Shown one piece after another: positions 7,395-47,568 of a DNA stretch of 56,629 bases (position 1 is the first letter of the stretch; each line of letters begins with the position of its first letter). Both the position numbers and the translations under genes were made by a program. The notes under the pieces were generated by a model, which did not search any database, was not told the DNA's origin, and was given only the letters and a program-made list of their open reading frames with translations. Origin of the DNA: Bacilli bacterium (GTDB lineage Bacteria; Bacillota_I; Bacilli_A; RF39; UBA660); the NCBI GenBank assembly GCA_017625395.1, contig JAGALD010000006.1, positions 1 to 56,629 of the forward strand, given 5' to 3'.

Positions 7395-8144
7395 ATGATA
7401 AGTTTTTTTGTAGGTTTTCTTGGAATAATTTGTGGACTTATTGTACTTGTACTAATTGTATACTTCTTTCTAGTATATAAATTTAATCAATTGGGATTTA
7501 AAGGACTTAATCTTTTCAAAATAAAAGAAGAGATAGAACAAAATTCTAATTTAAATCCAAAACAAGTAAGTGGTATGACAAATTTGCTATTACCAAGAAT
7601 TATGAACGATTTTCCTGATTTTGATATTAATCATTTATATTTACAAACAGAAAAAAGTATAAGAACAATATTAAATTCAGTAGAAAATAAAGATATTTCT
7701 ATTCTTGAAGATAAAGATTTTAATTTAATTAACAAAAAATTAAAACTTCAATTGGAAGATTTGATAAATAGTGATATACTGTATAAGTATGATGATATAA
7801 AATTTCACAAACACGCATTAAAAAGCTATTCAAATAGCGATGGTGTTGCAACAATTGAGGTTTCATCATCACTAGAATATTTTTATCAAAAAGAAAAAGA
7901 TGGTAAAAAGTTAAAAAACGACTCTATAAAGAAACAAGTTAGATATATAACTAAGTTTGTTTATATCGTCGATAGCAGTGCTTATGAAAAAGATATTAAT
8001 GTATACGGTATTAATTGTCCAAATTGCGGTGCAGTTATTGAAACATTGAAATCCAATAAATGTAAGTATTGTGGCAGTGGGCTTAACATTAAAATAGTAA
8101 ATCTATTAAAATGTTGGAAACTCATTGATTGTAAAGAAAATTAA
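7395..8144 (+). CDS. membrane protein with C-terminal zinc ribbon
   Basis: N-terminal TM helix and C-terminal CPNCG...CKYCG. Its position upstream of the SPFH gene recalls the ydjG/H-ydjI arrangement. Confidence 0.5.
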   Translation: MISFFVGFLGIICGLIVLVLIVYFFLVYKFNQLGFKGLNLFKIKEEIEQNSNLNPKQVSGMTNLLLPRIMNDFPDFDINHLYLQTEKSIRTILNSVENKDISILEDKDFNLINKKLKLQLEDLINSDILYKYDDIKFHKHALKSYSNSDGVATIEVSSSLEYFYQKEKDGKKLKNDSIKKQVRYITKFVYIVDSSAYEKDINVYGINCPNCGAVIETLKSNKCKYCGSGLNIKIVNLLKCWKLIDCKEN

Positions 8145-10585: not shown

Positions 10586-10662
10586 GGACCCTTAGCTCAG
10601 TTGGTTAGAGCATCCGGCTCATAACCGGGCGGTCATAGGTTCGAGTCCTATAGGGTCCACCA
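10586..10662 (+). tRNA. tRNA with CAU anticodon (elongator Met or lysidine-dependent Ile2), CCA encoded
   Basis: Cloverleaf folded by hand: acceptor GGACCCT/AGGGTCC, D arm GCTC..GAGC, anticodon stem TCCGG/CCGGG with loop CTCATAA, T arm ATAGG-TTCGAGT-CCTAT. The G1-C72 pair excludes an initiator tRNA. Confidence 0.9.
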
Positions 10663-10671
10663 TTATATGTT

Positions 10672-10756
10672 GCGGGTGTGGCGGAATTGGCAGACGCACT
10701 AGACTTAGGATCTAGCGCCGTGAGGCTTGCAGGTTCAACTCCTGTCACCCGCACCA
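10672..10756 (+). tRNA. tRNA-Leu (UAG anticodon), long variable arm, CCA encoded
   Basis: Acceptor GCGGGTG/CACCCGC, anticodon stem CTAGA/TCTAG with loop CTTAGGA, long extra arm, T loop GGTTCAACTCC. Confidence 0.9.
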
Positions 10757-34721: not shown

Positions 34722-35921
34722 ATGAAAAAAACTTTTATTGCGGTATCAATAATTTGTATACTAACAATTATTTCAACATATATTTATAATTATCACATAA
34801 AAGAAGAAAATAATACATCTAATGAAGAAAATATAAACATAGATGCATATTATAGCGAATTAGTTAAAACAAACAACAATGGAATAATATATTCGATAGA
34901 TAACAATACATATACAAAAGTAGGGGAGTATAAAAAAGATATTAAATTATACTTAGATAAAATTAATAATGAGTACTTTCAAATAAAAGGTACAAATTAT
35001 TATATTAATTACCAAGATGTAGAAAAATATACTGAACCAATTCAAGAAAGATATAAAAAATATCTACCATTAGGAAAGAAAATTATTACAGCGAATGAAT
35101 ATAATTTATACCAAGACAAAAATTCATACATAACTTTAAAAGAATCTAAAACTTTCGAAGTTATTTACATTGATAATAATAAATATTATGTTTTATTCAA
35201 TGATATACTTTACTACATATTAAAAGATAATATTATTAAAGAAGAAACAATTACCAATATAGTATCAAACACAAAAAACATTCCCGTATTAAATTATCAC
35301 TTCATATACGATAAAGACTATGAAAAATGTAATGAAATAATATGTATTGAAAAAGCCTTATTTGAAACACACTTAAAATATTTAAAAAATAATAATTTTT
35401 TAACACTTACAATGAACGAATTTAATTTATGGATGGATGGAACATTAAATTTACCAGAAAAGGCCGTCTTAATTACTTTTGATGATGGAGCACTTGGTAC
35501 TAATACTCATTTAATAGAATTATTAGAAAAATATGACATGAATGCAAGTTTATTTCTAATTACAGCATGGTGGCCAAGATCAAAATATGAGTCTCCTAAT
35601 TTAGAAATATATTCTCATGGTCACGATATTCACTTGGATAACTACTGTAAAAAAGGACCAAGAGGATATTGCTTAACTAAAGAAGAATTAATAGAAGACT
35701 TCTCATTATCTATTCCATTAGTAGATAATAATTTAGCTTTTTGTTATCCATTTTATGCTTATAACAATACAATAATTGAAGCATTGAAAGAATTAAAATT
35801 TGAACTAGCATTCATAGGTGGAAATAAAAAAGCCAAACAAAGTGACAATAAATATTTAATACCAAGATATATTATTTACTATAATACTGATATAAATATA
35901 TTCAAAAAAATAGTTAATTAA
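34722..35921 (+). CDS. membrane-anchored polysaccharide deacetylase (NodB domain)
   Basis: N-terminal TM helix, NodB motifs LITFDDGALGT and YSHGHDIH. Confidence 0.8.
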   Translation: MKKTFIAVSIICILTIISTYIYNYHIKEENNTSNEENINIDAYYSELVKTNNNGIIYSIDNNTYTKVGEYKKDIKLYLDKINNEYFQIKGTNYYINYQDVEKYTEPIQERYKKYLPLGKKIITANEYNLYQDKNSYITLKESKTFEVIYIDNNKYYVLFNDILYYILKDNIIKEETITNIVSNTKNIPVLNYHFIYDKDYEKCNEIICIEKALFETHLKYLKNNNFLTLTMNEFNLWMDGTLNLPEKAVLITFDDGALGTNTHLIELLEKYDMNASLFLITAWWPRSKYESPNLEIYSHGHDIHLDNYCKKGPRGYCLTKEELIEDFSLSIPLVDNNLAFCYPFYAYNNTIIEALKELKFELAFIGGNKKAKQSDNKYLIPRYIIYYNTDINIFKKIVN

Positions 35922-35930
35922 AAGGATCAA

Positions 35931-37154
35931 TTAATTTTGACCCTTTTTTAATTTATCAATAGATTCTTTTATTTGTTTTAATGATCTTTCATATTGTGAT
36001 GTAGTCTTTGGTTCATAATAATTTTTCTTTTTTAAATTATCAGGCATATATTCTTGTACCACAAAGTCGTTAGGATAATCATGGGGGTATAAATAGCCTA
36101 CAGCAGTCGAATTGATATGATTAGGCACTTTACTGCATCTACCAGTTCTAACGTCTTCTAGCGCCTTATTTATAGCTAAATAAGCCGAATTAGATTTAGG
36201 AGATAAAGCCATCTCTATTACAATCTCTCCCATAGGTATAACAGCCTCAGGAAGCCCAACTAATTCTGATGCATCAATGGCAGCTTTTAATCTTGGACCA
36301 AGCGAAGGATTAGCAAGTCCAATATCTTCATAACATATAACACTAAGTCTTCTATAAATACTATCTAAATCTCCAGCTTCTAAAAGTCTAGCAAGATAGT
36401 GTAGGGAAGCATTAACATCACTTCCTCTAATAGACTTTTGAAATGCACTTAACACATCATAATGCCCATCTTCATTCTTATCATGAAAAAAAGCAGGTTT
36501 ATTATTAATTCTTTTCACTTGTTCAACATCAACTTTCTTATCACTAGAAGAATAATATGATATTTCAAGTAAATTATAAGCATATCTTAAATCATTACCA
36601 GATAAAGCTGCAATATACTTAATCGCTTCATCATCTATTTCAATACCCTCTAAATCAGAATGTTTCGTAGCTTTTTTTAATCCTTCAATAATATCATCTT
36701 CTTCAAGAGGTAATAATTCAAATAAATGGCATCTGCTTCTAATTGCAGGATTAATCTTATGATAAGGATTACTTGTAGTCATTCCTATTAAAGTAATCAA
36801 ACCGCTTTCAATCTGCGGAAGAAGTAAATCTTGTTTATCTTTATTTAACCTATGAATCTCATCCATAATTAAAACAATACCATCGTACATCTTTGCTTCT
36901 TCAACAACTATATCAAAATCATGTTTATTATTAATAGTAGCATTTAAAAATCTATATCTAACCCCTAAATCCTTAACAATAGCATTAGCTATAGAAGTTT
37001 TACCAATACCAGGTCTCCCATATAATATCATAGAAGGTAACTTCTTATTATTAACAAGATTTCTTAATACTTTATTTTCTCCTAATAAATGTTTTTGGCC
37101 AATAACTTCATCAATAGAATTAGGAGCAAGTTTTATTGCTAAAGGTTTTTCCAT
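35931..37154 (-). CDS. rarA: replication-associated recombination protein A (RarA/MgsA AAA+ ATPase)
   Basis: Walker A GRPGIGKTS, Walker B LIMDEIHR, and MgsA C-terminal ...HYDVLSAFQKSIRGSD.NASLHYLARL. GAGGTGG RBS serves ATG 37154. Confidence 0.92.
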   Translation of the reverse strand: MEKPLAIKLAPNSIDEVIGQKHLLGENKVLRNLVNNKKLPSMILYGRPGIGKTSIANAIVKDLGVRYRFLNATINNKHDFDIVVEEAKMYDGIVLIMDEIHRLNKDKQDLLLPQIESGLITLIGMTTSNPYHKINPAIRSRCHLFELLPLEEDDIIEGLKKATKHSDLEGIEIDDEAIKYIAALSGNDLRYAYNLLEISYYSSSDKKVDVEQVKRINNKPAFFHDKNEDGHYDVLSAFQKSIRGSDVNASLHYLARLLEAGDLDSIYRRLSVICYEDIGLANPSLGPRLKAAIDASELVGLPEAVIPMGEIVIEMALSPKSNSAYLAINKALEDVRTGRCSKVPNHINSTAVGYLYPHDYPNDFVVQEYMPDNLKKKNYYEPKTTSQYERSLKQIKESIDKLKKGQN

Positions 37155-37263
37155 AAAAACCACCTCAAAAATATTGTATCAAACATTTGTTTATTAATCA
37201 ATTTCTTTTCATTTATACTTACATATATCAATATTTGTTATATAATATATATAAGGTGTAATT

Positions 37264-38187
37264 ATGGAAATAGATATATATGACAATATAAATAATGAAA
37301 TAAAAGATAGCATAATAGATTATATAAATTATTTAAGAGTTGAAAGAAGACTTTCTAAAAATACATATAATTCTTATGAAAAAGATTTAAAAGATTATTT
37401 AATATTTTTAAATAAAAAAGATATAACAACACTTAAAAAAATAGAAAAAAAACATATAATCGATCATTTAGAATACTTAAATAAAAATAAATTAACAACA
37501 ACCTCTATAGCAAGAAAATTAACTGCTATTAAAAATTTTCATAAATATATATATGCCAAAGAATTAACAAAAGATGATGTATCACTTACAATAGAAAGGC
37601 CAAAATTAAGAAAAGCATTACCAAATGTTTTAACAATAGAAGATGTAGATAAACTTCTAGATATTAAACTAAATACACCATTTGACTATCGTAATAAGGC
37701 TATGTTAGAATTACTTTATGGAACTGGTCTACGAATTACTGAACTTTTAGACTTAAAAATAACAGATATTGATTTTGAAAACTGTATTCTAAGATGTTTT
37801 GGTAAAGGAAGCAAAGAAAGAACTGTTCCAATAGGAGAATATATCATTGACGCATTAAATGAATATTTGCCAAAAAGAAATATCCTTTTAAAAGGCAAAA
37901 AAGAAGATTATTTATTCTTAAATAATTTAGGTGGACGACTAAGTAGATTTAGTTTTTTTAAGATACTTAAGAAAATGTTAAAGGAAAGAAATATTAATAA
38001 AAATGTTTCACCACATAGTCTAAGACACAGTTTTGCAACGCATATGTTAGAGTACGGTGCCGATTTAAGAAGTATACAAGAACTTCTAGGCCATAGTGAT
38101 ATTTCAACTACAAGAATATATACACATATTACTAATAAAAAAGTTACAGATGATTATATTGAATATCATCCACGAAGTAAAAAATAG
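37264..38187 (+). CDS. xerD: site-specific tyrosine recombinase XerD
   Basis: Core-binding N-domain, then ...GLRITEL..., HSLRHSFATHMLEYGADLRSIQELLGHSDISTTRIYTH (R-H-R-Y catalytic set). Lies upstream of deoB as ripX does in Bacillus. Confidence 0.85.
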   Translation: MEIDIYDNINNEIKDSIIDYINYLRVERRLSKNTYNSYEKDLKDYLIFLNKKDITTLKKIEKKHIIDHLEYLNKNKLTTTSIARKLTAIKNFHKYIYAKELTKDDVSLTIERPKLRKALPNVLTIEDVDKLLDIKLNTPFDYRNKAMLELLYGTGLRITELLDLKITDIDFENCILRCFGKGSKERTVPIGEYIIDALNEYLPKRNILLKGKKEDYLFLNNLGGRLSRFSFFKILKKMLKERNINKNVSPHSLRHSFATHMLEYGADLRSIQELLGHSDISTTRIYTHITNKKVTDDYIEYHPRSKK

Positions 38188-38199
38188 GAGAGTGTAAAA

Positions 38200-39369
38200 A
38201 TGAATTTTAAAAGAATATTTTTACTTGTTTTAGATTCACTGGGTGTTGGTGAAGCAATTGACGCAAATAATTATGGAGACAATGGTGCTAACACATTAAA
38301 ACATATCATGGATAATTATGACCTTTTTATTCCAAACCTTAAAAAGTTAGGATTTGTTGACACAATAAACATGAATGAAAATGATAATGTTGATGCATAT
38401 TACACAATTGCAAGACCAACAAATACTGGAAAAGACAGCCTAACATCACATTATGAATTAATGGGAATTAAAAGTACTGTGCCATTTAAAACATTTACAG
38501 AAAAGGCATTTCCAAGAGAACTATTAGAAAAAATAGAAGAAGTAACTGGAAAAAGAGTTATAGGAAATAAAGTAATAAACGGTGATGCTATTATAAATGA
38601 ATTAGGAGAAAGACACTTATCTTATGGAAGCCTAATAATTTATACATCTGCTGACTCAACACTTCAAGTTGCAGCACATGAAGATATAATACCAATACCT
38701 AAACTATATAGTTATTGTGAAAAAATAAGAAAAATAACTCTTTCTGATGATTGGCGAATTGCAAGAGTTATTGCAAGACCATTTACTGGAAAACCCGGAA
38801 AATTCAAATTTACTAATGATAGATGCGACTATTCTGTAAAACCACCACATAAAAGTGTAATGGATTATTTGAAAGAAAAAGATTATAGTGTTATATCAAT
38901 AGGTAAAATTAATGATATATTCGATGGTGAAGGAATAACTAAAATTGTAAAATCATCTTTCAATAATATGGATACATTAAACAAAATGACTGATATCATG
39001 AGTAAAAAATTCACAGGACTTTGTATTGCAAACTTAAGTGATTTTGATGCATTATATGGTCATAACAGAGATGTTGAAGGATATGCTAAAGCAATAGAAG
39101 AGTTTGATGTTGAAGTATCAATGATACTAAATAAATTAGAAAATGATGATCTATTAATAATTACTGCAGACCATGGAAATGACCCAACATTCCCTGGGAA
39201 CTCACATACAAGAGAAAATGTACCAGTAATCATATTTGGAAGAAAATTCAAAACACCAAAGAAATTAGAAATATTAGATAGTATGGCAGATATAGCGGCA
39301 ACAATAGCAGAAAACTTTGAAGTAGAAAAACCTGAAATAGGAACAAGTTTTTTAGACAAATTAAAATAA
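38200..39369 (+). CDS. deoB: phosphopentomutase
   Basis: RIFLLVLDSLGVGE, ...ITADHGNDPT...HTRENVP. Confidence 0.93.
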   Translation: MNFKRIFLLVLDSLGVGEAIDANNYGDNGANTLKHIMDNYDLFIPNLKKLGFVDTINMNENDNVDAYYTIARPTNTGKDSLTSHYELMGIKSTVPFKTFTEKAFPRELLEKIEEVTGKRVIGNKVINGDAIINELGERHLSYGSLIIYTSADSTLQVAAHEDIIPIPKLYSYCEKIRKITLSDDWRIARVIARPFTGKPGKFKFTNDRCDYSVKPPHKSVMDYLKEKDYSVISIGKINDIFDGEGITKIVKSSFNNMDTLNKMTDIMSKKFTGLCIANLSDFDALYGHNRDVEGYAKAIEEFDVEVSMILNKLENDDLLIITADHGNDPTFPGNSHTRENVPVIIFGRKFKTPKKLEILDSMADIAATIAENFEVEKPEIGTSFLDKLK

Positions 39370-39379
39370 GCTTTTAAGC

Positions 39380-39565
39380 TTATTTTTTCTTTTCATAACT
39401 ATTACATAAAGTATCATCTTTACTTGTAACATCATCATTACAACATGAAGAACCAACTCTTATCTCATTTAATTTACAATGATTACTATTACAATCATTA
39501 TATAAACAAGTTAACACATTACATTTAATCTTTGAATTAAAATTATTAGAAACTTCCTTTCCCAT
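39380..39565 (-). CDS. DUF1540-like small Cys-rich protein
   Basis: GGAGG RBS then MGKEV... with the pattern C.V..C.YN....C.L..I.VG...C....T.C. Confidence 0.6.
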   Translation of the reverse strand: MGKEVSNNFNSKIKCNVLTCLYNDCNSNHCKLNEIRVGSSCCNDDVTSKDDTLCNSYEKKK

Positions 39566-39662
39566 ACTTACCTCCATTAATATTATTAACAATATATAAT
39601 ATTAATATTTATTAATATTTAAAAAAATGATACAATTTAACATATAAAGAGTAGGTGTAATA

Positions 39663-40820
39663 ATGATTTTAAATTATATTATAATAATTTTATTAAATTT
39701 ATATATATTATTTAATAAAAAACAAAGAAAAAAAGAAAAACTAATTAAACTTATCAATTTTACAAATATAAATGTAATTACAATAAATTTATTATATTAT
39801 TTAATAGCTTTTATCTACAAATTAAACATTAACTATATTGATTTATCATTTTTAATAATAAACATAATATCATATATACCAATAGCATTATTAAAAAAGA
39901 AAAATAAAAGAAAAGAAGTTATTAACGAAGAAGAAAAAACTATTAATTATATGTTCAAATTATCCATACTTTCATACATATTAATACAAAGAGTAGGGGA
40001 CATAGAAAAACTAAATATTGCAATATATATATATTCACTAATAATAGTCTTTATAGCAATATTAATCTCTAAAATAATTAAATTTTTAATAAATAATAAA
40101 CATATAGTAGTATTTAAAGAAAATGAAGAAAAAGATTATTTAAATGATATAAAATTTAATACTAAAATAATAATTAATAAATTTTACAATTATATAATAT
40201 ACATACTAGCATATATATTATTTATATATATAAAATTTCCATATTATTACATAATATATCCAACAATATTAATAATTTCTCTATATATTATCTACAAAAA
40301 AATTAAAAAAATTAAAAATCAATCTAAAAAACTATATCATAATATTTCGATAATAAAAGAAAAACCTGGAATTAATTATGCATTTCAATTTAATAGAGAT
40401 ATTCTTTTTACAAAAAATATTATGTTAGCCAGCATATTTTTTGTAATAACAGTATTAATTTATTTCTTAATAGATATTACAGCATTTACTTACATAGCAA
40501 TAGAATTATATATAATATTAATATATATTATATTGTGTGATAAAAAAAAGAATATATACAACGTATATTCCTTAAATTCAGAATTTATAGATAAAAAAAG
40601 ATATAAAACATCAATTAATATTCCAATATCTAAAATAAAACAAATAAACATATTCAATATAAAATTTTATAAAATAGAATGTATAACAGACAACAATATT
40701 AAATATGAATCTGAAATAATATTATATGATCCAGAACTTTATATAGATAATATAACAATATATCTAAATACAAATAATATAGATGATTATATAATAATGA
40801 CTAATGAACTATATATGTAA
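39663..40820 (+). CDS. polytopic membrane protein of extreme Ile/Lys/Asn/Tyr composition (385 aa)
   Basis: AGGTG RBS and a long intact ORF in nearly pure A/T sequence, with several hydrophobic segments. It is the last + strand gene before the dif-like site. Confidence 0.5.
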   Translation: MILNYIIIILLNLYILFNKKQRKKEKLIKLINFTNINVITINLLYYLIAFIYKLNINYIDLSFLIINIISYIPIALLKKKNKRKEVINEEEKTINYMFKLSILSYILIQRVGDIEKLNIAIYIYSLIIVFIAILISKIIKFLINNKHIVVFKENEEKDYLNDIKFNTKIIINKFYNYIIYILAYILFIYIKFPYYYIIYPTILIISLYIIYKKIKKIKNQSKKLYHNISIIKEKPGINYAFQFNRDILFTKNIMLASIFFVITVLIYFLIDITAFTYIAIELYIILIYIILCDKKKNIYNVYSLNSEFIDKKRYKTSINIPISKIKQINIFNIKFYKIECITDNNIKYESEIILYDPELYIDNITIYLNTNNIDDYIIMTNELYM

Positions 40821-40848
40821 TTATATAGTTTTTTTATTATTATACAGA

Positions 40849-40876
40849 AGGCAACATAACTTTAATTATAGGAAGT
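40849..40876 (-). other. dif-like XerC/XerD site (left junction of the element)
   Basis: The - strand reads ACTTCCTATAA-TTAAAG-TTATGTTGCCT. B. subtilis dif is ACTTCCTAGAA-TATATA-TTATGTAAACT. That gives 10/11 in the XerC arm and 8/11 in the XerD arm. The site lies 1 nt from the rep stop codon. Confidence 0.65.
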
Positions 40877-40877
40877 A

Positions 40878-41462
40878 TTAAATATTTTTTTTAGAGACAA
40901 GTTCTTGTCTAGTTTTAAATCTTCTAGAATCAATATAAGATTTTAAAAATAATGTATGGTCTTTAGCAACGTTCCACATAATAAATAATTCATTGTCATT
41001 AAGTATATCTAATAAGTCGGAATATTCTAAAATCGAATTATCAATAATAAATTGTTGAATATCTCTTAAAGTTTTAGAAACTTCGGTATAACTTAATGAA
41101 TCAACTTTTGAAACATCGAAACCATTATAAAATGTACGGAATCTATCATCATATTGAAATTTCTCGGGATTATCTAGATGTAAATGATATCTATACATAC
41201 CAACCATAGATTCGAGTTTAATAGGAATAGTACCATTAAGTAGAGTAGTAACGTTTTCCTTTACATTTTTAAATGTAGTAGTATTCTCATAATAGCATAT
41301 TACATGGTAGTGGGGTTTTTTACTCTCCCCTGTCGGATTTACATCTTTATCATGTAATGGACTAAATGCCATTGGTAAACCCGTATTAATGATAATTTCT
41401 TCGTAATCACTTGGAAGTGAATCCGGATAAACTACAAATGCCCAATTTCTACCTTTTTGCAT
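40878..41462 (-). CDS. rep: rolling-circle replication initiator, pMV158 RepB / Rep_2 family (HUH endonuclease)
   Basis: NWAFVVYPDSLPSDYEEII..TGLPMAFSPLHDKD...KKPHYHVICYY (HUH) and MYRYHLHLDN (catalytic Tyr context) are collinear with pMV158 RepB (YPES.PSDW...ISPLHDKD...KAHYHVL...MYLYLTH). AAGGAGG RBS. Confidence 0.85.
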   Translation of the reverse strand: MQKGRNWAFVVYPDSLPSDYEEIIINTGLPMAFSPLHDKDVNPTGESKKPHYHVICYYENTTTFKNVKENVTTLLNGTIPIKLESMVGMYRYHLHLDNPEKFQYDDRFRTFYNGFDVSKVDSLSYTEVSKTLRDIQQFIIDNSILEYSDLLDILNDNELFIMWNVAKDHTLFLKSYIDSRRFKTRQELVSKKNI

Positions 41463-41493
41463 AAAAAACCTCCTTTGTCACACATCACTCTAT

Positions 41494-41516
41494 GGGGGGT
41501 GTCGTAGTAACCCCCC
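41494..41516 (-). other. double-strand origin (dso) hairpin with pMV158-family nick sequence
   Basis: The - strand reads GGGGGG-TTACTACGACA-CCCCCC. The loop contains TACTACGAC, the RepB nick sequence of pMV158 (TACTACG/AC). It lies 32 nt upstream of the rep start. Confidence 0.75.
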
Positions 41517-41544
41517 TTTTTTTTTGTTCTCATTGGCGAACCAC

Positions 41545-41573
41545 CTAGCAAAAAAAAGACTTTTTTTTGCTAG
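41545..41573. other. 13-bp-stem palindromic hairpin (CTAGCAAAAAAAA-gac-TTTTTTTTGCTAG)
   Basis: Perfect inverted repeat seen directly in the sequence. It lies between the zot terminator and the dso. Function unknown. Confidence 0.5.
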
Positions 41574-41658
41574 CTAAACAATTATATTTAAATATATTTA
41601 TCAATTACGAAAAGTGCATAATGCAGTAGCTTATAACTTTTCTTCATTGACAAATAAA

Positions 41659-41691
41659 GGCTTTATGCGTGCAAAGGCACGCATAAATGCC
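41659..41691 (-). terminator. terminator of the structural/assembly operon
   Basis: TTATGCGTGC-cttt-GCACGCATAA (- strand) immediately after the zot stop, followed by a T-rich stretch. Confidence 0.65.
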
Positions 41692-42491
41692 TAATATCGC
41701 ATTTTTTTGAGATATTCTCTTTCCTCATTAGTTGGAAAGAAACTATGTAAAATATCGGCTTTTGTAAGTTCTAAAGAACTATACATAATTGATTTATAAG
41801 GTTTTGAATCACTTTGAAGATACCTCAAATATTTAGAATCATACATTGAACCTACTTTTTTAATTCTAAAAAAGAATCTAAAATAATCAACATCAAGTAG
41901 ATCTTCGTTGACAACATTATTTTCTAAATTTGCTGACATTTCCCAACTACATCTAATATTTACCCAAGCAATACCTAAAAATTTTCTAAATGACTGTATG
42001 TTCCAATATTCCTCGGCAAGAACAAGGATTCTTTTAATTATTCTTGATTGTGATTGACTAGATACATATATATCGTGGTCAAAATGTCTATGAGCTTGGC
42101 AATAATGAGCTATTGAATCAGGAAAATCTTTATATTCCATAGAATCATATTTAGCTTGTACTTCGTCAATATAAAAACTAGAACCTTGAGGAAATTTATT
42201 ATCAAGTGTTAAATCGAAGATTCTACACCTTAAAGACATTATAAAATCACTTTCTACAATTTCACCATTTTCATCATAATAATAATATTTTTTACCTTTT
42301 TTAGGTTTTTTAAATAAAACAGGAAAATCGGTATATTGTAAAACTTCATATATATATTTTTTTCTCAAAATTTTTTCAGTAAACCAAACTTTTAATGGTG
42401 GATTATATTTTTTAAATTCTTTTCTAGCAACATTAACCATAGTCAATGTTTTACCTTTTCCAGGTTTACCTGTTAATATTATTAAAGACAA
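41691..42491 (-). CDS. Zot/pI-family inovirus assembly ATPase
   Basis: Walker A LTGKPGKGKT, Walker B FYIDEVQ, Zot-family QAHRHFDHDIYVSSQSQSRI. TTG start overlaps the upstream gene by 10 nt. Confidence 0.8.
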   Translation of the reverse strand: MSLIILTGKPGKGKTLTMVNVARKEFKKYNPPLKVWFTEKILRKKYIYEVLQYTDFPVLFKKPKKGKKYYYYDENGEIVESDFIMSLRCRIFDLTLDNKFPQGSSFYIDEVQAKYDSMEYKDFPDSIAHYCQAHRHFDHDIYVSSQSQSRIIKRILVLAEEYWNIQSFRKFLGIAWVNIRCSWEMSANLENNVVNEDLLDVDYFRFFFRIKKVGSMYDSKYLRYLQSDSKPYKSIMYSSLELTKADILHSFFPTNEEREYLKKMRY

Positions 42492-42847
42492 TATTCATCA
42501 TCTTCATCATCTTCATTATATTCATCGTGAGAAGTAAAATATTTTTTTATATCTTTTATAGGAAAATAATTTTTTTTCAAATCAAGAATTGAAATATAAT
42601 CTCTTTTTAATTCTTTTTTAGAAATATAATCATTGTTGAGTAAACAACAATTAATAACTAAATCAAATAATTCATAATTTTTTTCATAATATAAATATGA
42701 AATAGCACCACAATCAAAACAAGTAAAAACTATTTCTTGTCTAGTAGCACAATTAAAAATAAAATTATGAGTATGTTTTTTATTTTTACAAATACAATTT
42801 TCATTTAGGACTTTATTTAATTCGTCCATTTCTTTAAAATCAAACAT
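42482..42847 (-). CDS. phage hypothetical Cys-rich protein with acidic tail (121 aa)
   Basis: CICKNKKH...C...CFDCG pattern suggests zinc binding. C-terminal NEDDEDDEY. Confidence 0.55.
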   Translation of the reverse strand: MFDFKEMDELNKVLNENCICKNKKHTHNFIFNCATRQEIVFTCFDCGAISYLYYEKNYELFDLVINCCLLNNDYISKKELKRDYISILDLKKNYFPIKDIKKYFTSHDEYNEDDEDDEYCL

Positions 42848-42864
42848 AAAATAATCCCTCCAAA

Positions 42865-43080
42865 TTAAATTTTAAATTTTCCAATTTCCATATTTTTTTT
42901 AATAAAATATGGATTTTCTTGATATCTATTAAGTACCGTTATATAGCATTTTTTTAATTCTTTATAATCTAAATAATCAACTATTTTCAATAAATCGTGA
43001 TTATGTGTAATAATTAATAATTCTTTTAATTTATTAGATAAAATTAACTTTTTCTTATTTTCAGTCAATTCATAAATCAT
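42865..43080 (-). CDS. phage hypothetical protein (71 aa)
   Basis: AGGGGAA RBS directly after the preceding stop. Soluble and Lys-rich. Confidence 0.5.
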   Translation of the reverse strand: MIYELTENKKKLILSNKLKELLIITHNHDLLKIVDYLDYKELKKCYITVLNRYQENPYFIKKNMEIGKFKI

Positions 43081-43089
43081 ATTATTCCC

Positions 43090-43257
43090 CTACTCTAAAT
43101 TGTCATAATTACCGAAAAATTGTTCTAAAGTTTTTTCGACATCTTTTGATATTGTATTAGCTTTCTTTTTTAATACTAAAAGAAAATATAATTTCTTTAT
43201 AATAAATAAAATTGAATAACATATTAAAAAATAGAGAGCAAATAACCAAAAATCCAT
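43090..43257 (-). CDS. phage small membrane protein (55 aa; not in ORF track)
   Basis: Hand-translated as MDFWLFALYFLICYSILFIIKKLYFLLVLKKKANTISKDVEKTLEQFFGNYDNLE. GAGGTGGTAGT-ATG junction with the upstream ORF. Confidence 0.55.
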   Translation of the reverse strand: MDFWLFALYFLICYSILFIIKKLYFLLVLKKKANTISKDVEKTLEQFFGNYDNLE

Positions 43258-43258
43258 A

Positions 43259-43399
43259 CTACCACCTCATATTCTTTATAATTGTAATAAACTTTAAAAT
43301 TATCATTAAAAAACAATAAATAAATAACAAGATATAAATATTATGCAAACAACCAATAAAAGTTTCATTTTCTACAAACCAATATACATACTGTTCCAT
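43259..43399 (-). CDS. phage small membrane protein (46 aa; not in ORF track)
   Basis: MEQYVYWFVENETFIGCLHNIYILLFIYCFLMIILKFITIIKNMRW. Its start is 2 nt after the upstream stop, with GGGGGAAG as RBS. Confidence 0.5.
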   Translation of the reverse strand: MEQYVYWFVENETFIGCLHNIYILLFIYCFLMIILKFITIIKNMRW

Positions 43400-43401
43400 T
43401 T

Positions 43402-43560
43402 TTATTTCTTCCCCCTATTCAAAAATACAAATACAATTTTAACCAATACTAATATTATTAAAATTTTTAATATAGAAACTGTACCAAATAAAGTAACTGA
43501 ATCTAAAAATACTATAAAATTATAAAATTGTTCGAGAAAGAAATATAATAAATCAAGCAT
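43402..43560 (-). CDS. phage small membrane protein (52 aa; not in ORF track)
   Basis: MLDLLYFFLEQFYNFIVFLDSVTLFGTVSILKILIILVLVKIVFVFLNRGKK, a hydrophobic core with a basic tail. GAGGTGGTAAT-ATG junction. Confidence 0.55.
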   Translation of the reverse strand: MLDLLYFFLEQFYNFIVFLDSVTLFGTVSILKILIILVLVKIVFVFLNRGKK

Positions 43561-43561
43561 A

Positions 43562-43720
43562 TTACCACCTCAAACCTTTTATAAATGACCTTATAACATC
43601 AATAAATAGCTTAAACAAGCTTATAAAGATATACATTACAAATAGTACTCCAAAAGCTTTTAAAAAGTGAAATTCGGCAGGTAAACCACCTAATAACATT
43701 TCAACTAATTCCCACAACAT
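43562..43720 (-). CDS. phage small membrane protein (52 aa; not in ORF track)
   Basis: MLWELVEMLLGGLPAEFHFLKAFGVLFVMYIFISLFKLFIDVIRSFIKGLRW. It starts 4 nt after the stop of the 70-aa ORF. Confidence 0.5.
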   Translation of the reverse strand: MLWELVEMLLGGLPAEFHFLKAFGVLFVMYIFISLFKLFIDVIRSFIKGLRW

Positions 43721-43724
43721 AAAA

Positions 43725-43937
43725 TCAACCCTTTCTAAAAATTTTGTAAGTAAAAATGACTAAATATAAGCTAATAAAGATATAACAACATTGATATAAT
43801 GGACTAGGTAAAATCTTTATAATAGATAAAAATAAATTTACAAGACTAGTTATAATTTGAATACAGCCATAAATACCGTCAATAATAGTACCTAAAATTG
43901 AAACTATAAAATCAAAAACTTGTGTCAAAGCATCCAC
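43725..43937 (-). CDS. phage hydrophobic minor-coat-like protein (70 aa, pVI-like by position)
   Basis: Two or three hydrophobic helices. It directly follows the pIII-like gene. Confidence 0.55.
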   Translation of the reverse strand: MDALTQVFDFIVSILGTIIDGIYGCIQIITSLVNLFLSIIKILPSPLYQCCYIFISLYLVIFTYKIFRKG

Positions 43938-43941
43938 TATA

Positions 43942-45678
43942 TCACTTCCCTATCAATTTAAATAAAATATAGCTCATTGTTAATATAAACAATACAAATA
44001 TAATAGTTCTAATAAACTCCGGAGCTAAATCATAGCAATTTTGTAAAACTAGTGAAAATTGATTAATATCACTAGATAAAGAATCAATAAAATCTTTTAT
44101 TATAGTTAAATAATTATCTACATCATAAGAATCATCAATATTAGTCTGTTGATAAATAATAAAATCATTTTCTAAAATAGTATTAGAATCCTCATAATAA
44201 GTAAATTTATTATCAAGTTTATAATTATTATTAAAGGAAACCATTGTATTTTCATCAACTAATACATAAGCAGTATCAGAAGAAGTAGAAGATTCTAATA
44301 AAAATGTAGAATTAGGCATTACATCAGTATATTTATAAAATTTCAAAGGCTTAGAATCAATTGGGTAAAAATATACATAATCCCATTTCTGCATATTCTC
44401 TTTTCTATAAATTGTAGAAGTAATAGTATCATTAATAGAACCATAATAAGCATTATTAGGTGTAGATTTATAAGATACCATTAAAGCATTATTGGAATTT
44501 AAATTATAAAAATCTAAAAAATTATCATATCTACGATTAAAAGAATCATTAGGGTAAATATAACCATAATTAGCACTAGAAGAAAAATTAAAAACTTTTA
44601 AAGAATTAAGCATATGAAGATTTACATAAATATTATCATAATTTGATAAATCACTTCGACAAGTGGTAAATTCAAAATATTTTTTCTGAAATTGAATAAA
44701 ATCTTTTTGAAGACCAAAATCTTCATAATAAGGTTCATCACTTGTGATCTGATAAGAACAATCTAATTTATCATAAGTATAATAAGTACCATGATTGATT
44801 CTACCAAAAATGTTAACATCATAATTATAATCTAATAAATCCCCTATTCTACCTAACGAAAATTCAGCAACATAATCATCGATATTTTCTTTAGGAATAT
44901 TTGATAAAAATAAACCATTATATGTAGGAATAAAAGAATTATTAACAAAAGTTGGTCCTGTATCAGGTATATTAATATAAACCTCTAAAGGCTCTATATA
45001 TTGATTAAAATCAATAGTAGAATTATTATATTTTAAAGATCTATAATATGCAGTATCAGAAGTACTACGAAGATAATATAATAAAGAATTTTCAAAACTT
45101 GAATAATATGGAACAAAATAGTTCATATTAGATGACAAAGATATATTTTCCTCAAAAGAAGTCAAAGGAAAGTAAAAATTAAAATTATTCCAAGAATTAG
45201 TAGTTGAACCATTTTTTAAAATATTATCGAGAGCAGTTAATCTATTATTCCATTGATTTTCATACGAAGTTGTACCAACATCAAAAGATAAATAAACTCT
45301 ACCACCCATTAAAAAATTAGAAATTTGAAATCTAGAGCCTTTTAATCCCTCAAATGAAACTTGTATTGGATTAGTACCATTATGAAAAATAATTACAATT
45401 TGTTGATTTTGAGTACCACTATTATCAATAGACTTATATAAAATAGTATAGTTATAATTATTTGGATTATTATTTTCAATATAATCTTTAAAATATTCAA
45501 GATAATATTTTATACTTTTATTATCATAAAAAATATTAGATTCATCATTTATATAAGATTTAACCTCTTTTATATCAATATCAAAATATAAATTTTCTTG
45601 AACTAAAGCATAAGCATTTTCCATTAAAAAGAAAGTAGAAAATAAAATTAAAATTGTAAATAATATTTTTTTTATCAT
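43942..45678 (-). CDS. phage pIII-like adsorption/minor coat protein (578 aa)
   Basis: Signal peptide MIKKILFTILILFSTFFLMENAYA, an Asn/Tyr/Ser-rich body, and a C-terminal membrane anchor IIFVLFILTMSYILFKLIGK. It is the only large ORF in the element. Confidence 0.6.
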   Translation of the reverse strand: MIKKILFTILILFSTFFLMENAYALVQENLYFDIDIKEVKSYINDESNIFYDNKSIKYYLEYFKDYIENNNPNNYNYTILYKSIDNSGTQNQQIVIIFHNGTNPIQVSFEGLKGSRFQISNFLMGGRVYLSFDVGTTSYENQWNNRLTALDNILKNGSTTNSWNNFNFYFPLTSFEENISLSSNMNYFVPYYSSFENSLLYYLRSTSDTAYYRSLKYNNSTIDFNQYIEPLEVYINIPDTGPTFVNNSFIPTYNGLFLSNIPKENIDDYVAEFSLGRIGDLLDYNYDVNIFGRINHGTYYTYDKLDCSYQITSDEPYYEDFGLQKDFIQFQKKYFEFTTCRSDLSNYDNIYVNLHMLNSLKVFNFSSSANYGYIYPNDSFNRRYDNFLDFYNLNSNNALMVSYKSTPNNAYYGSINDTITSTIYRKENMQKWDYVYFYPIDSKPLKFYKYTDVMPNSTFLLESSTSSDTAYVLVDENTMVSFNNNYKLDNKFTYYEDSNTILENDFIIYQQTNIDDSYDVDNYLTIIKDFIDSLSSDINQFSLVLQNCYDLAPEFIRTIIFVLFILTMSYILFKLIGK

Positions 45679-46001
45679 GATTTAATTCTCCTTTTATTCT
45701 TTTTATCAGATGAGCGATCGATTTGAGTATCAATATTAGAATTATTAAACTTTAAAAAAGAAATATCAATAAAATCAAAAACTATTAAAGTAATGCTAAC
45801 AAATAAACTAAAACCAATTATTACTAAAATAAACCAATTATTTAACAACATATTACAAAACATAACAAAATAATCTAAAAACATTAAAACTACACTTTTT
45901 AATAAATTTAAAAAATCAGTAAATGTAAATCCCTCAATATTTAACAAATTAAAAAAAGAGCAAAAATCTACATTTAAAAAACTTGTAAAAGTATCAAACA
46001 T
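45675..46001 (-). CDS. phage membrane protein (108 aa)
   Basis: Two or three TM segments and a basic tail DKKNKRRIKS. Overlaps the next gene by 4 nt. Confidence 0.55.
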   Translation of the reverse strand: MFDTFTSFLNVDFCSFFNLLNIEGFTFTDFLNLLKSVVLMFLDYFVMFCNMLLNNWFILVIIGFSLFVSITLIVFDFIDISFLKFNNSNIDTQIDRSSDKKNKRRIKS

Positions 46002-46017
46002 AAATTTTCACCCCCAT

Positions 46018-46206
46018 TTATTTTTTGTGTGTAGCCCAAGAAAAAATTGAACCAACTAAAAATACTAAAAATGCTAAAAACAACCCTAATAAAATTATTT
46101 GCCCCAAAATAGTACCAAGTAAAAATTCTGAGACAAAAGCCCCTAATTGTTCAAATAAAAAATCAAACATTAAACCCATATTACCCAAAAAATCCGTTAA
46201 TGTCAT
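46018..46206 (-). CDS. phage small hydrophobic coat-like protein (62 aa)
   Basis: MTLTDFLGNMG... followed by a long hydrophobic helix ending in ...WATHKK. Confidence 0.55.
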   Translation of the reverse strand: MTLTDFLGNMGLMFDFLFEQLGAFVSEFLLGTILGQIILLGLFLAFLVFLVGSIFSWATHKK

Positions 46207-46253
46207 ATTTTAACCCCTTTCAATAAAGAAAAATAAGAGCTAAATAGCTCCTA

Positions 46254-46469
46254 TTATTTTCTTCTTCCACGTTTACGGAAAGATGCCTTACCAACAAGAC
46301 CTACAACAAGTTTGTAGATAAGTAAAGCAATTCCTAAACCAAACATCAAAGCAATCATAGGATTAGCTATTAAGTTTGATGATACAGTTGTAAACCACTC
46401 TAAGAAACTAGTTAAAATTGTTCCAACAGATTCGATTAGAGCAGTTAATCCAGTAGCAGTACCTTCCAT
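46254..46469 (-). CDS. candidate major coat protein (71 aa)
   Basis: Amphipathic N-terminus, a hydrophobic helix (MIALMFGLGIALLIYKLVVGLVG) and a strongly basic C-terminus KASFRKRGRRK, matching inovirus pVIII architecture. AAGGGGG RBS. Confidence 0.6.
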   Translation of the reverse strand: MEGTATGLTALIESVGTILTSFLEWFTTVSSNLIANPMIALMFGLGIALLIYKLVVGLVGKASFRKRGRRK

Positions 46470-46485
46470 TTATTTAACCCCCTTT

Positions 46486-46704
46486 TTACAATTTTCTATT
46501 TAAAAAACGAATAATTTTTTTTATTAAACGTTTTTTAAGCGTATTTGTTCTTTTTTGTTCAAAATATAAATCGTCAATAACAAGAACAACTTCATGATTA
46601 TAAGAATTTTTATAACCAACAAAATAATCAACGTAATATGTCTTGATAATTTTATAATAATAAGTCTTATTATTTGGATTAAACCAAATTATTAATCTTT
46701 TCAT
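46486..46704 (-). CDS. phage hypothetical protein (72 aa, Tyr/Lys-rich)
   Basis: Its ATG shares one nt with the upstream stop (TAATG). Soluble and basic. It could be a DNA-binding (gV-like) function by position only. Confidence 0.5.
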   Translation of the reverse strand: MKRLIIWFNPNNKTYYYKIIKTYYVDYFVGYKNSYNHEVVLVIDDLYFEQKRTNTLKKRLIKKIIRFLNRKL

Positions 46705-46877
46705 TATTTTTTAGAAAGATTATAAGACATTATTAATATTTTGGCTTTATCAGATTTAACAGTTTGTTCTATTGTTGAACCGTCTGCAAGGTTAAATACT
46801 AAAGAATAATATTCTCTTACTTCACCTGTATCTTTGGCATTAAAAGTCTTTTTAACTAACTTACAATTTAAATCCAT
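46704..46877 (-). CDS. phage hypothetical protein (57 aa; not in ORF track), first gene of the operon
   Basis: AAGGAGGG RBS then MDLNCKLVKKTFNAKDTGEVREYYSLVFNLADGSTIEQTVKSDKAKILIMSYNLSKK. Confidence 0.55.
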   Translation of the reverse strand: MDLNCKLVKKTFNAKDTGEVREYYSLVFNLADGSTIEQTVKSDKAKILIMSYNLSKK

Positions 46878-47200: not shown

Positions 47201-47365
47201 ATGATCAATAACATAATACCAACAACAATAAGAATAGAAGAACAAACAAAAACAGCTATAGAAGATATAGCAAAAATAGAACAAAGAAGTTTTAATAAAA
47301 TGGTAGAATATATTCTACAAAAATATATTATAGAATATATGGAAAAGCAAAATAAAAAAGACTAG
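47201..47365 (+). CDS. ribbon-helix-helix (CopG/Arc-type) DNA-binding protein (54 aa; not in ORF track)
   Basis: GAGGGG RBS. MINNIIPTTIRIEEQTKTAIEDIAKIEQRSFNKMVEYILQKYI fits a beta-strand/helix/helix RHH pattern. It is divergent from the phage operon. Confidence 0.6.
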   Translation: MINNIIPTTIRIEEQTKTAIEDIAKIEQRSFNKMVEYILQKYIIEYMEKQNKKD

Positions 47366-47394
47366 AAATACGGTCTTTTTTTTAACCCTCCGTC

Positions 47395-47568
47395 GTTCCC
47401 TTTTAAGGGAACCGCAAAAAACACCCCTACGGGGGTTTTTTGCGTTTGTTCCTCCCCCTTTTTTTATTCTAAAAAAACCGGGTTTGCCCTTTTTCTAAGG
47501 GCAGTCGCACCCCGGAACAAGAACCCATTCGAGAAAAAAAAACTAGCTCACTTATGAAATCGCTAGTT
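47395..47568. other. GC-enriched cluster of four stable hairpins (candidate single-strand origin / packaging signal)
   Basis: Hairpins at 47395..47412 (GTTCCCTT/AAGGGAAC) and 47413..47444 (CGCAAAAAAC.CCCC-tac-GGGGGTTTTTTGCG). A nested pair CCGGG..TGCCCTT-loop-AAGGGCA..CCCGG at 47478..47515, and AACTAGC-14 nt-GCTAGTT at 47541..47568. Confidence 0.5.

Follow-up and report, generated by a model that had tools for sequence, protein, structure and literature searches.

A predicted pMV158-type plus-strand origin beside a RepB-like initiator gene in a filamentous prophage of an uncultured gut Bacilli bacterium

In plasmids of the pMV158 family, which use rolling-circle replication (RCR), the initiator RepB acts on a hairpin formed by an inverted repeat (IR-I): it cleaves at the GpA of the loop sequence TACTACG/AC and makes contact with both the right arm of the hairpin and the proximal repeats (PMC1851628). 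The nick sequence is highly conserved, two or three 7-bp proximal repeats lie downstream of IR-I in all members, and distal repeats (the bind locus) are found in most members and are needed in vivo by pMV158 (PMC1851628). The rep genes of filamentous phages (inoviruses) have repeatedly been replaced by plasmid ones (Kazlauskas et al., 2019), and the inovirus family iPF_00199, with 71 members, is listed as 'RCR, Rep_2' (Roux et al., 2019, Supplementary Table 5). Here we analyse a stretch of 56,629 nucleotides (hereafter the window) from the uncultured Bacilli bacterium assembly GCA_017625395.1 (contig JAGALD010000006.1), which holds a rep gene of this kind next to a zot gene. From its sequence, the segment between the two genes (41463..41690) is very probably the intergenic control region of a ~6.7-kb inovirus-type prophage, with a nic-type double-strand origin (dso) of the pMV158/pE194 family at 41516..41477.

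Features are on the - strand unless stated otherwise. Read 5' to 3', the rep-proximal part of the region runs ...GAACAAAAAAAAA-GGGGGGT-TACTACGAC-ACCCCCC-ATA-GAGTGAT-GTGTGAC-AAAGGAGGTTTTTT-ATG, the letters of the hairpin region being aaaaaaaaaGGGGGGTTACTACGACACCCCCCatagagtgatgtgtgacaaaggaggttttttATG. The G6/C6 hairpin that a preliminary description of this DNA had placed upstream of the Rep start is present at 41516..41494, as an IR-I-type structure with a left arm (41516..41510), the loop TACTACGAC (41509..41501) and a right arm (41500..41494). Folded as single-stranded DNA it has a 7-bp stem and a 9-nt loop, and 31 nt separate it from the rep ATG (41462). The loop was said to hold the nick sequence of the pMV158 family, and it consists of exactly that 9-mer; by the GpA of TACTACG/AC, the predicted nick falls between G41503 and A41502. 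Three nucleotides past the hairpin lie two phased 7-nt repeats, GAGTGAT GTGTGAC (41477..41490, 5/7 identical), which by sequence and position are the equivalent of the proximal direct repeats (PDR) of the pMV158 family and a putative secondary Rep-binding site. A Shine-Dalgarno sequence AAGGAGG can be read at 41469..41475, 6 nt 5' of the ATG, and an A9 tract adjoining the hairpin (41517..41525) could serve as an easily melted flank. The nick strand is the coding strand for all phage genes.

The G and C runs had been described as standing out, and they are conspicuous because the GC content of the window is only ~25%. The 23-nt G6/C6 hairpin cannot be a chance feature, since 30 further related loci have the same structure, likewise on the rep strand. 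In addition, the intergenic region folds far more stably than its shuffled versions (41463..41700, 238 nt; -49.1 versus -21.6 kcal/mol, z = -8.6). The exact 9-mer TACTACGAC occurs twice in the whole window, where ~0.2 copies would be expected by a composition estimate. The second copy (54259-54267, + strand) was judged a chance match because it lacks G/C-run flanks, and forms no hairpin, and lies inside a radical-SAM (MiaB-like) gene.

The adjacent rep gene (40878..41462) encodes a 194-aa RepB-like HUH rolling-circle initiator with an origin-binding/nuclease domain and a C-terminal oligomerisation domain. It matches Pfam Rep_OBD (PF01719, formerly Rep_2) with an E-value of 2e-35 (121.9 bits, cut-off 24.6) and RepB_C (PF21861) with an E-value of 3.8e-7 (30.4 bits, cut-off 27.3), and its top PDB match by phmmer is pMV158 RepB (3dkx, E 1e-17). 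The motifs HYHVI and MYRYHLH, from which membership of Rep_2 had been proposed, are both present, and Pfam and the PDB place the protein in the same family. Rep residues H37, D40, H51, H53, Y92 and Y104 align with H39, D42, H55, H57, Y99 and Y115 of RepB, of which the first four are Mn2+ ligands, Tyr99 is catalytic and Tyr115 is a conserved structural residue (PMC5030251). All five active-site residues are therefore retained in Rep, as four predicted metal ligands (H37/D40/H51/H53) and the catalytic Y92. A tblastn search of a plasmid collection returned Rep homologues in 472 plasmids (best identity 50%), mostly small plasmids of Enterococcus, Staphylococcus, Lactococcus, Streptococcus and Mycoplasma. 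In a rough neighbour-joining tree, the window Rep falls within a clade made up of Reps from prophages and inoviruses, next to which the plasmid Reps branch; the Rep of plasmid pADB201 was entered as 9 aa, so the placement of pADB201 in this tree is meaningless. By these domain and alignment matches, Rep belongs to the Rep_2/RepB family. The comparison with the pMV158 family on which the preliminary description had staked its reading thus came out in its favour, both in the clustering of Rep with Rep_2/RepB and in the matching layout of the origin.

We compared 31 distinct origins drawn from plasmids (including pMV158 and pADB201), GenBank inoviruses, IMG/VR contigs and prophages in metagenome-assembled genomes (MAGs) of gut Bacilli. 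In 31 out of 31, the nick 9-mer lies in a folded loop and two to three tandem 7-nt repeats follow directly after the stem. Across phages and plasmids, the 9-mer in the loop varies little or not at all while the flanks diverge. The sequence of the 7-nt repeats varies by element (GTGCATT, GGTCTGT, GTGCCAT, GGCCATT, GTCCATT, GGGATGA and others), as expected of Rep-specific binding sites, and extensions of the stem past the G/C run covary (for instance CATGGGGAG/CTCCCCATG, CCCCTGGGGG/CCCCCAGGGG and CACTATGGGGG/CCCCCATAGTG). The nick sequence, hairpin and downstream repeats of the window all fit the nic locus of the pMV158 family.

The dso of the streptococcal plasmid pMV158 (pLS1), read directly from NZ_MZ396393 (reached via tblastn), is GGGGGGG-CTACTACGA-CCCCCCC, TAT, the PDR AGTGCCG AGTGCCA, an A-tract and three CGGCGACTTTT distal repeats, with GATTTTTTCTCCGAAAAAATC just 5' of IR-I. 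Both origins have TACTACG/AC in the loop of a G/C-run hairpin and 7-nt proximal repeats just 3' of it, and both lie upstream of rep on the same strand. The initiators share an origin-binding nuclease domain (H/D/HUH/Y) and a C-terminal oligomerisation domain, although they are only ~31% identical. Unlike pMV158, the window lacks the three 11-bp distal repeats of the bind locus, and it has neither copG nor room for a Pcr-type promoter, as rep begins 31 nt past the hairpin; its replicon is also not a plasmid but a phage integrated in the chromosome. The RCR plasmid pADB201 of Mycoplasma mycoides (NC_001382), whose host is likewise low in GC and Mollicute-like, is closer, with a Rep 43% identical to that of the window. 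Its origin, GGGGGCTACTACGATAGCCCCC, reads GGGGGC-TACTACGAT-AGCCCCC followed by AAT-GAGTGAT TTGTGAC ATGTGAC, so that its first two repeats almost equal the ATA-GAGTGAT GTGTGAC of the window. It differs in having a third proximal repeat, three 22-bp distal repeats and a CopG-like open reading frame (ORF) between origin and rep, and in a nick loop that ends in GAT, whereas the window loop ends in GAC.

The genes that adjoin this origin are those of a filamentous phage. Upstream of the intergenic region lies a gene for a 266-aa zot/pI-like morphogenesis ATPase (41691..42491; Pfam Zot, 24.6 bits against a cut-off of 20.3; PHROG_197, E 3.6e-10), 33% identical to the Zot of Dulem virus 59. Among deposited phages, tblastn found Rep in 37 records, all of them Inoviridae from faecal viromes. 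Dulem virus 59 (PP511793) and bajarodino virus 14 (PQ006174) are complete circles in which Zot, an intergenic region, the same hairpin and Rep follow one another, the hairpin lying ~50 nt before rep, and 9/10 hairpin-bearing IMG/VR contigs also encode Zot and Rep_2. These two phages and family iPF_00199 share with the window a G5-6/TACTACGAC/C5-6 hairpin, followed by 7-nt repeats and then Rep. The Reps of the two phages are 55-56% identical to that of the window, with genome sizes of 4.5-7.1 kb, and Dulem virus 59, like the window, has a ATTTGTCAAT...ATTGACAAAT hairpin after zot. In contrast to the window element, both are free circular genomes, and their structural genes are largely unrelated in sequence to those of the window. 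Downstream of rep, Dulem virus 59 and bajarodino virus 33 carry their own recombinase and bajarodino virus 14 a repressor gene, where the window has a dif-like attP and no recombinase.

The gene content supports the view that the neighbouring genes form an inovirus morphogenesis module, and with it that a plasmid-type RCR origin resides in a filamentous phage. The preliminary description had called the locus a chimera of plasmid RCR and inovirus assembly. The chimera is real, as Zot, the Rep_2 initiator and the origin attest, but its novelty was overstated in view of iPF_00199 (Roux et al., 2019) and the 37 GenBank records: the combination of a plasmid Rep with a filamentous phage is already common in public databases, and the window is a further example. 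We found no explicit account of the TACTACGAC hairpin or of a pMV158-type origin in inoviruses in the searchable literature, which is not proof of novelty; such an origin in inoviruses follows directly from the Rep family.

The general plan recalls that of the Ff phages (f1/M13/fd), in which an intergenic region separates the last morphogenesis gene from the initiator gene and the nicked strand is both the coding and the packaged strand. As in Ff, a series of hairpins including a terminator precedes a plus-strand origin that is the target of an HUH initiator, and the order of terminator/packaging hairpin, minus-strand origin, plus-strand origin and initiator gene would be the same, the roles in the window being those of candidates. 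The window Rep is from a family unrelated in sequence to Ff gpII, the nick sequence differs, and Ff does not integrate.

Integration of the window element appears to have taken place at dif. The window spans the replication terminus, since at ~35-40 kb (~35000-41000) the cumulative GC skew reaches its maximum and the genes change from + to - orientation. Two direct dif-like 28-mers bound an element of ~6.7 kb. Site A, the left boundary (47611..47584), reads ACTTCCCATAA-TTAATA-TTTTAAGAATT and has a good XerC arm and a degenerate XerD arm, while site B, the right boundary (40876..40849), reads ACTTCCTATAA-TTAAAG-TTATGTTGCCT and starts 2 nt past the rep stop codon. Site B matches the dif of B. 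subtilis, ACTTCCTAGAATATATATTATGTAAACT (PMC3025954), at 20/28 positions. The circular attP junction is predicted to read ...AAAATATTTAATACTTCCTATAATTAA[TA/AG]TTTTAAGAATTAAAATA... and the empty dif ...TTCAACTTCCCATAATTAA[..]TTATGTTGCCTTCTG... No recombinase domain was found with Pfam in any of the five element ORFs of at least 100 aa. The host xerD (37264..38187), 2.7 kb away from the dif site, belongs to a conserved xerD-deoB-DUF1540 block; in every relative it is syntenic with deoB and rarA.

Related Rep_2 elements hold the same dif slot in more than 10 other species-level MAGs of gut Bacilli (with records such as 'Mycoplasma sp. CAG:877' and 'Tenericutes UMGS1110', and MAGs from rabbit, goat and Hadza samples; loci are labelled L001 onwards). 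The slot in these relatives is ordered p206-mnmA-HTH261 / Rep_2 element / dif / DUF1540-deoB-xerD-rarA. A complete dif lies directly 3' of rep, with a clade consensus of ACTTCCTATAATTGATATTATGTTAACT in 13 relatives, and the other boundary is a half-site repeat. Elements at dif measure 5.2 kb in L010, 5.0 kb in L006, 5.4 kb in L017 and 7.0 kb in L012. In L009, two elements of 5.35 and 4.25 kb stand in tandem, and each has a hairpin and a rep of its own; only the origin and rep (1.1 kb) are left in the slot of L005, and rep is broken in L021 and L030. The attP follows two designs, one that keeps the XerC arm (window, L012) and one that keeps the central region and XerD arm, 17/17 nt (L006, L009, L010, L017), which would imply two different routes of strand exchange.

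CTXphi, VGJphi and TLCphi are integrative mobile elements exploiting Xer (IMEX; PMC5357621). Like them, the window element is a filamentous phage without an integrase that sits at the chromosomal dif in the terminus, with a good dif-like site on one side and a degenerate one on the other, and tandem arrays occur in its relative L009. Unlike these phages of Proteobacteria, it resides in a low-GC, RF39-like Bacilli host, its Rep is of the Rep_2 family rather than Rep_trans (RstA), and its relatives show two attP designs; dependence on Xer is presumed here. The context thus looks like Xer/dif hijacking (IMEX) in a host of Gram-positive lineage. Extending this to the group, we tentatively propose, at slightly less than even odds, that the Rep_2 inoviruses of RF39-like gut Bacilli form an IMEX family, with attP at the rep stop codon, two attP designs and tandem arrays in which the pMV158-type origin beside dif could release circles directly from the chromosome, running from nick site to nick site like CTXphi. 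We found no description of IMEX in Gram-positive hosts in the searchable literature, where reports come only from Proteobacteria; this is not proof of novelty.

Several observations count against reading the region as a pMV158-type origin in use by this prophage. Neither distal direct repeats (a bind locus) nor iterons were found in 40700..41800 by Tandem Repeats Finder and a seed-6 repeat search, and the proximal repeats of the window (5/7) are the weakest among the 31 origins. No CopG-type ORF or antisense control module was found between the hairpin and rep, where the 31-nt gap leaves no space for one; a small ORF is present at this place in relatives L009-L011 and L015. No sigma-70-like rep promoter was found in the intergenic region at the threshold of the tool. 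The loop consensus of ssoA is TAGCG[T/A], and this motif is not present in the window intergenic region. A search of JGI metagenomes for the predicted circular junction gave no match, a result that is uninformative as the phage may be absent there. Finally, only one integrated copy of the prophage is present and its nick strand has a single nick site, so that RCR alone could not release a circle and prior Xer-mediated excision or a tandem partner (as in L009) would be needed. Having neither distal repeats nor a copG gene, nor space for the latter, the window origin is, by its sequence, of a nic-locus-only type. Some of these points would fit an origin that is correctly identified but belongs to a cryptic, immobilised copy, in which the Rep-origin module is a fossil no longer driving replication. 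The single copy with one nick site, the weak proximal repeats, the lack of distal repeats and of a detectable rep promoter all speak for this, as do the decay of same-slot relatives (L005, L021, L030) and the integrated form shown by 6/6 public contigs with this Rep. Yet all ORFs of the element are open, the catalytic residues of Rep are all kept, the nick 9-mer is exact and the hairpin perfect. Both dif-like boundary sites are also intact, leaving Xer-mediated excision possible, and contigs from three further, independent samples (L047-L049) carry the same prophage in integrated form, with 99.9% identity across the entire element. We therefore regard a fossil module as unlikely, if well short of negligible.

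A different arrangement, in which Rep and the origin are a separate integrated RCR plasmid or RS1-like satellite adjoining a phage without its own rep, would be in keeping with the origin and rep found alone at dif in L005, with the tandem arrays of distinct elements in L009 and with the strong terminator between zot and rep. It is nevertheless highly improbable: the zot-to-rep interval contains no dif-like site, no other replication gene is present in the element, and zot, origin and rep are adjacent in free circular inovirus genomes and IMG/VR contigs as well. As for the hairpin itself, its position in the 5' leader of rep, and the fact that G/C hairpins can be terminators, might suggest a purely transcriptional element (terminator, attenuator or rep operator) or a chance match to the nick sequence. 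No T-tract follows it, however, and its loop is identical to the experimentally mapped substrate of RepB and stays (nearly) invariant in 31 origins while the flanks diverge. The hairpin lies far from or downstream of rep in some relatives (L004, +1213; L003, -181), and a leader element therefore does not fit. By this pattern of conservation, a transcriptional or chance reading is effectively refuted, and we retain the interpretation of the hairpin as the nick site of a pMV158-type origin belonging to the prophage.

By analogy with RepB and Ff, we infer how this origin would be nicked, which strand would be chosen, what the upstream hairpins might do and that this copy may be active. On a supercoiled, double-stranded replicative form, Rep would bind the right arm and the repeats, as suggested by its homology to RepB; it would probably do so as a hexamer, because the RepB_C domain is present. 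Extrusion of IR-I as a cruciform would expose TACTACG/AC in the 9-nt loop, where Tyr92, with Mn2+ held by H37/D40/H51/H53, would cut between G41503 and A41502 on the - strand. A host polymerase and helicase would then extend the 3'-OH and displace the plus strand. The cut strand being the sense strand of all phage genes, it would be the strand that is displaced and packaged, as in Ff. After one round, Rep would cleave the regenerated site again and ligate the displaced strand to a circle, which may return to double-stranded DNA or be packaged and extruded via the Zot-type machinery.

The remainder of the intergenic region is occupied by a series of further hairpins. A small one, GTTC-GCCAATGA-GAAC (41526..41541), lies just upstream of the nick hairpin. 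Counterparts in three distinct relatives only, TTGGC-GCCAATGA-GCCAA in L012 (~7860) and TTGCC-GCCAATGA-GGCAA in L011 (~4636) and L009 (~7622), keep the position and an invariant loop, with stems that differ yet stay complementary. When a genome collection was scanned for the GCCAATGAG hairpin, the only matches that looked relevant were those in L011, in the contig of L012 and in a small Oscillospiraceae contig; the other three (Acidobacteriota, Paceibacterota and Thermoanaerobaculaceae MAGs) were presumed to be chance. The examples are too few for covariation statistics. The palindrome reported earlier at 41545..41573 holds up as a perfect A8/T8 palindrome, CTAGCAAAAAAAAG-T-CTTTTTTTTGCTAG, with 14-nt arms that are 100% complementary and 1 nt between them. 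Similar CTAGG...CCTAG or T/A-run palindromes take the same relative position in L001, L009, L011, L012, L013 and L014, comparable to GATTTTTTCTCCGAAAAAATC ahead of IR-I in pMV158, and we consider this palindrome a candidate minus-strand-origin element or regulatory site. TAGCG[T/A] is found in L002-like form, and also in L006 and L016 (TAGCGAAGCGT), and we make no ssoA assignment. A TATAAT noticed by eye at 41586..41581 has -35-like hexamers at non-canonical spacing (12 or 19 nt), and no claim is made for it as the rep promoter.

Further upstream, an inverted-repeat search and folding revealed a long imperfect hairpin (41595..41656) with 21-nt arms that are 86% complementary. L014 has the same arm sequences, TTGTCAATGAAGAAA / TTCGTAATTGATAA, and Dulem virus 59 shares ATTTGTCAAT / ATTGACAAAT. 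The long hairpin after the zot terminator is conserved in sequence (L014, ~7650-7740; L001, 740-815) though the Reps are only 56-60% identical. This conservation of the arms suggests a sequence-specific role, for example as a packaging signal or promoter, and the hairpin is a candidate packaging signal or minus-strand origin. The terminator proposed to separate the origin from the morphogenesis genes was likewise recovered: an intrinsic-terminator-like hairpin (41691..41659) starts within the zot stop codon and has a perfectly paired stem of 11 bp, which can be extended to 15 pairs, and a T-rich tail, TTTATTT. By their position and by analogy with Ff, which is thin ground, the terminator, the long hairpin, the A8/T8 palindrome and the GCCAATGA hairpin are together candidates for a packaging signal and a minus-strand origin. 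Outside this region, a G+C-rich cluster of 4-5 stable hairpins (47380..47560, fold z = -6.7) adjoins the left attachment site in surroundings of 20-25% GC. In L007 and L008, comparable G+C-rich hairpins precede the nick site, and the cluster may represent a single-strand origin, a packaging signal or a folded attP. An Rfam scan of the window at gathering thresholds gave no match in the element, the only hits being two adjacent tRNA genes (10586-10753, + strand).

Counting rep and zot, the element holds fifteen co-oriented ORFs, nine of which, 46-72 aa long, have hydrophobic cores by inspection. The 13 ORFs that extend from 42482 to 46877 are mostly small. From size and composition alone, the 578-aa product of one may be an adsorption protein, and another of 71 aa, hydrophobic in its core and basic in its tail, resembles a coat protein. 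None of the 13 has a Pfam or PHROG match; among related prophages, homologues exist for the 72-aa and 71-aa ORFs. A divergent gene (47201..47365, + strand) encodes a 54-aa ribbon-helix-helix (Arc-like) regulator (PHROG_582, E 5.5e-6; Pfam RHH_4 below cut-off), of which L008 has an 82%-identical homologue. Beyond the element, between dif and the DUF1540 gene, lies a 385-aa ORF (39663-40820, + strand) of ~16% GC with a multi-pass membrane look. It has no Pfam match and, by tblastn, no homologue in any relative, and may be the remnant of another insertion at dif. The gap from dif to DUF1540 is only ~0.5-0.6 kb in L010 and L016. The L049 contig ends inside the dif site, 10 nt past rep, which could reflect a branch of the assembly graph at the attachment site.

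In terms of annotation, an uncultured gut prophage is given a base-precise plus-strand origin, with its nick predicted at G41503/A41502. The analysis indicates that the pMV158 nic locus, hairpin and 7-nt repeats alike, has been carried unchanged into a filamentous-phage lineage, apparently without the bind locus. This supports, and does not change, the view that inoviruses and plasmids swap replication modules (Kazlauskas et al., 2019; Roux et al., 2019). The dif/Xer context, seen across many species of an uncultured gut lineage, is a more novel lead than the origin. If host Xer recombinases integrate these phages, IMEX biology would reach beyond Proteobacteria, and a complete dif beside rep would mark the terminus in fragmented MAGs.

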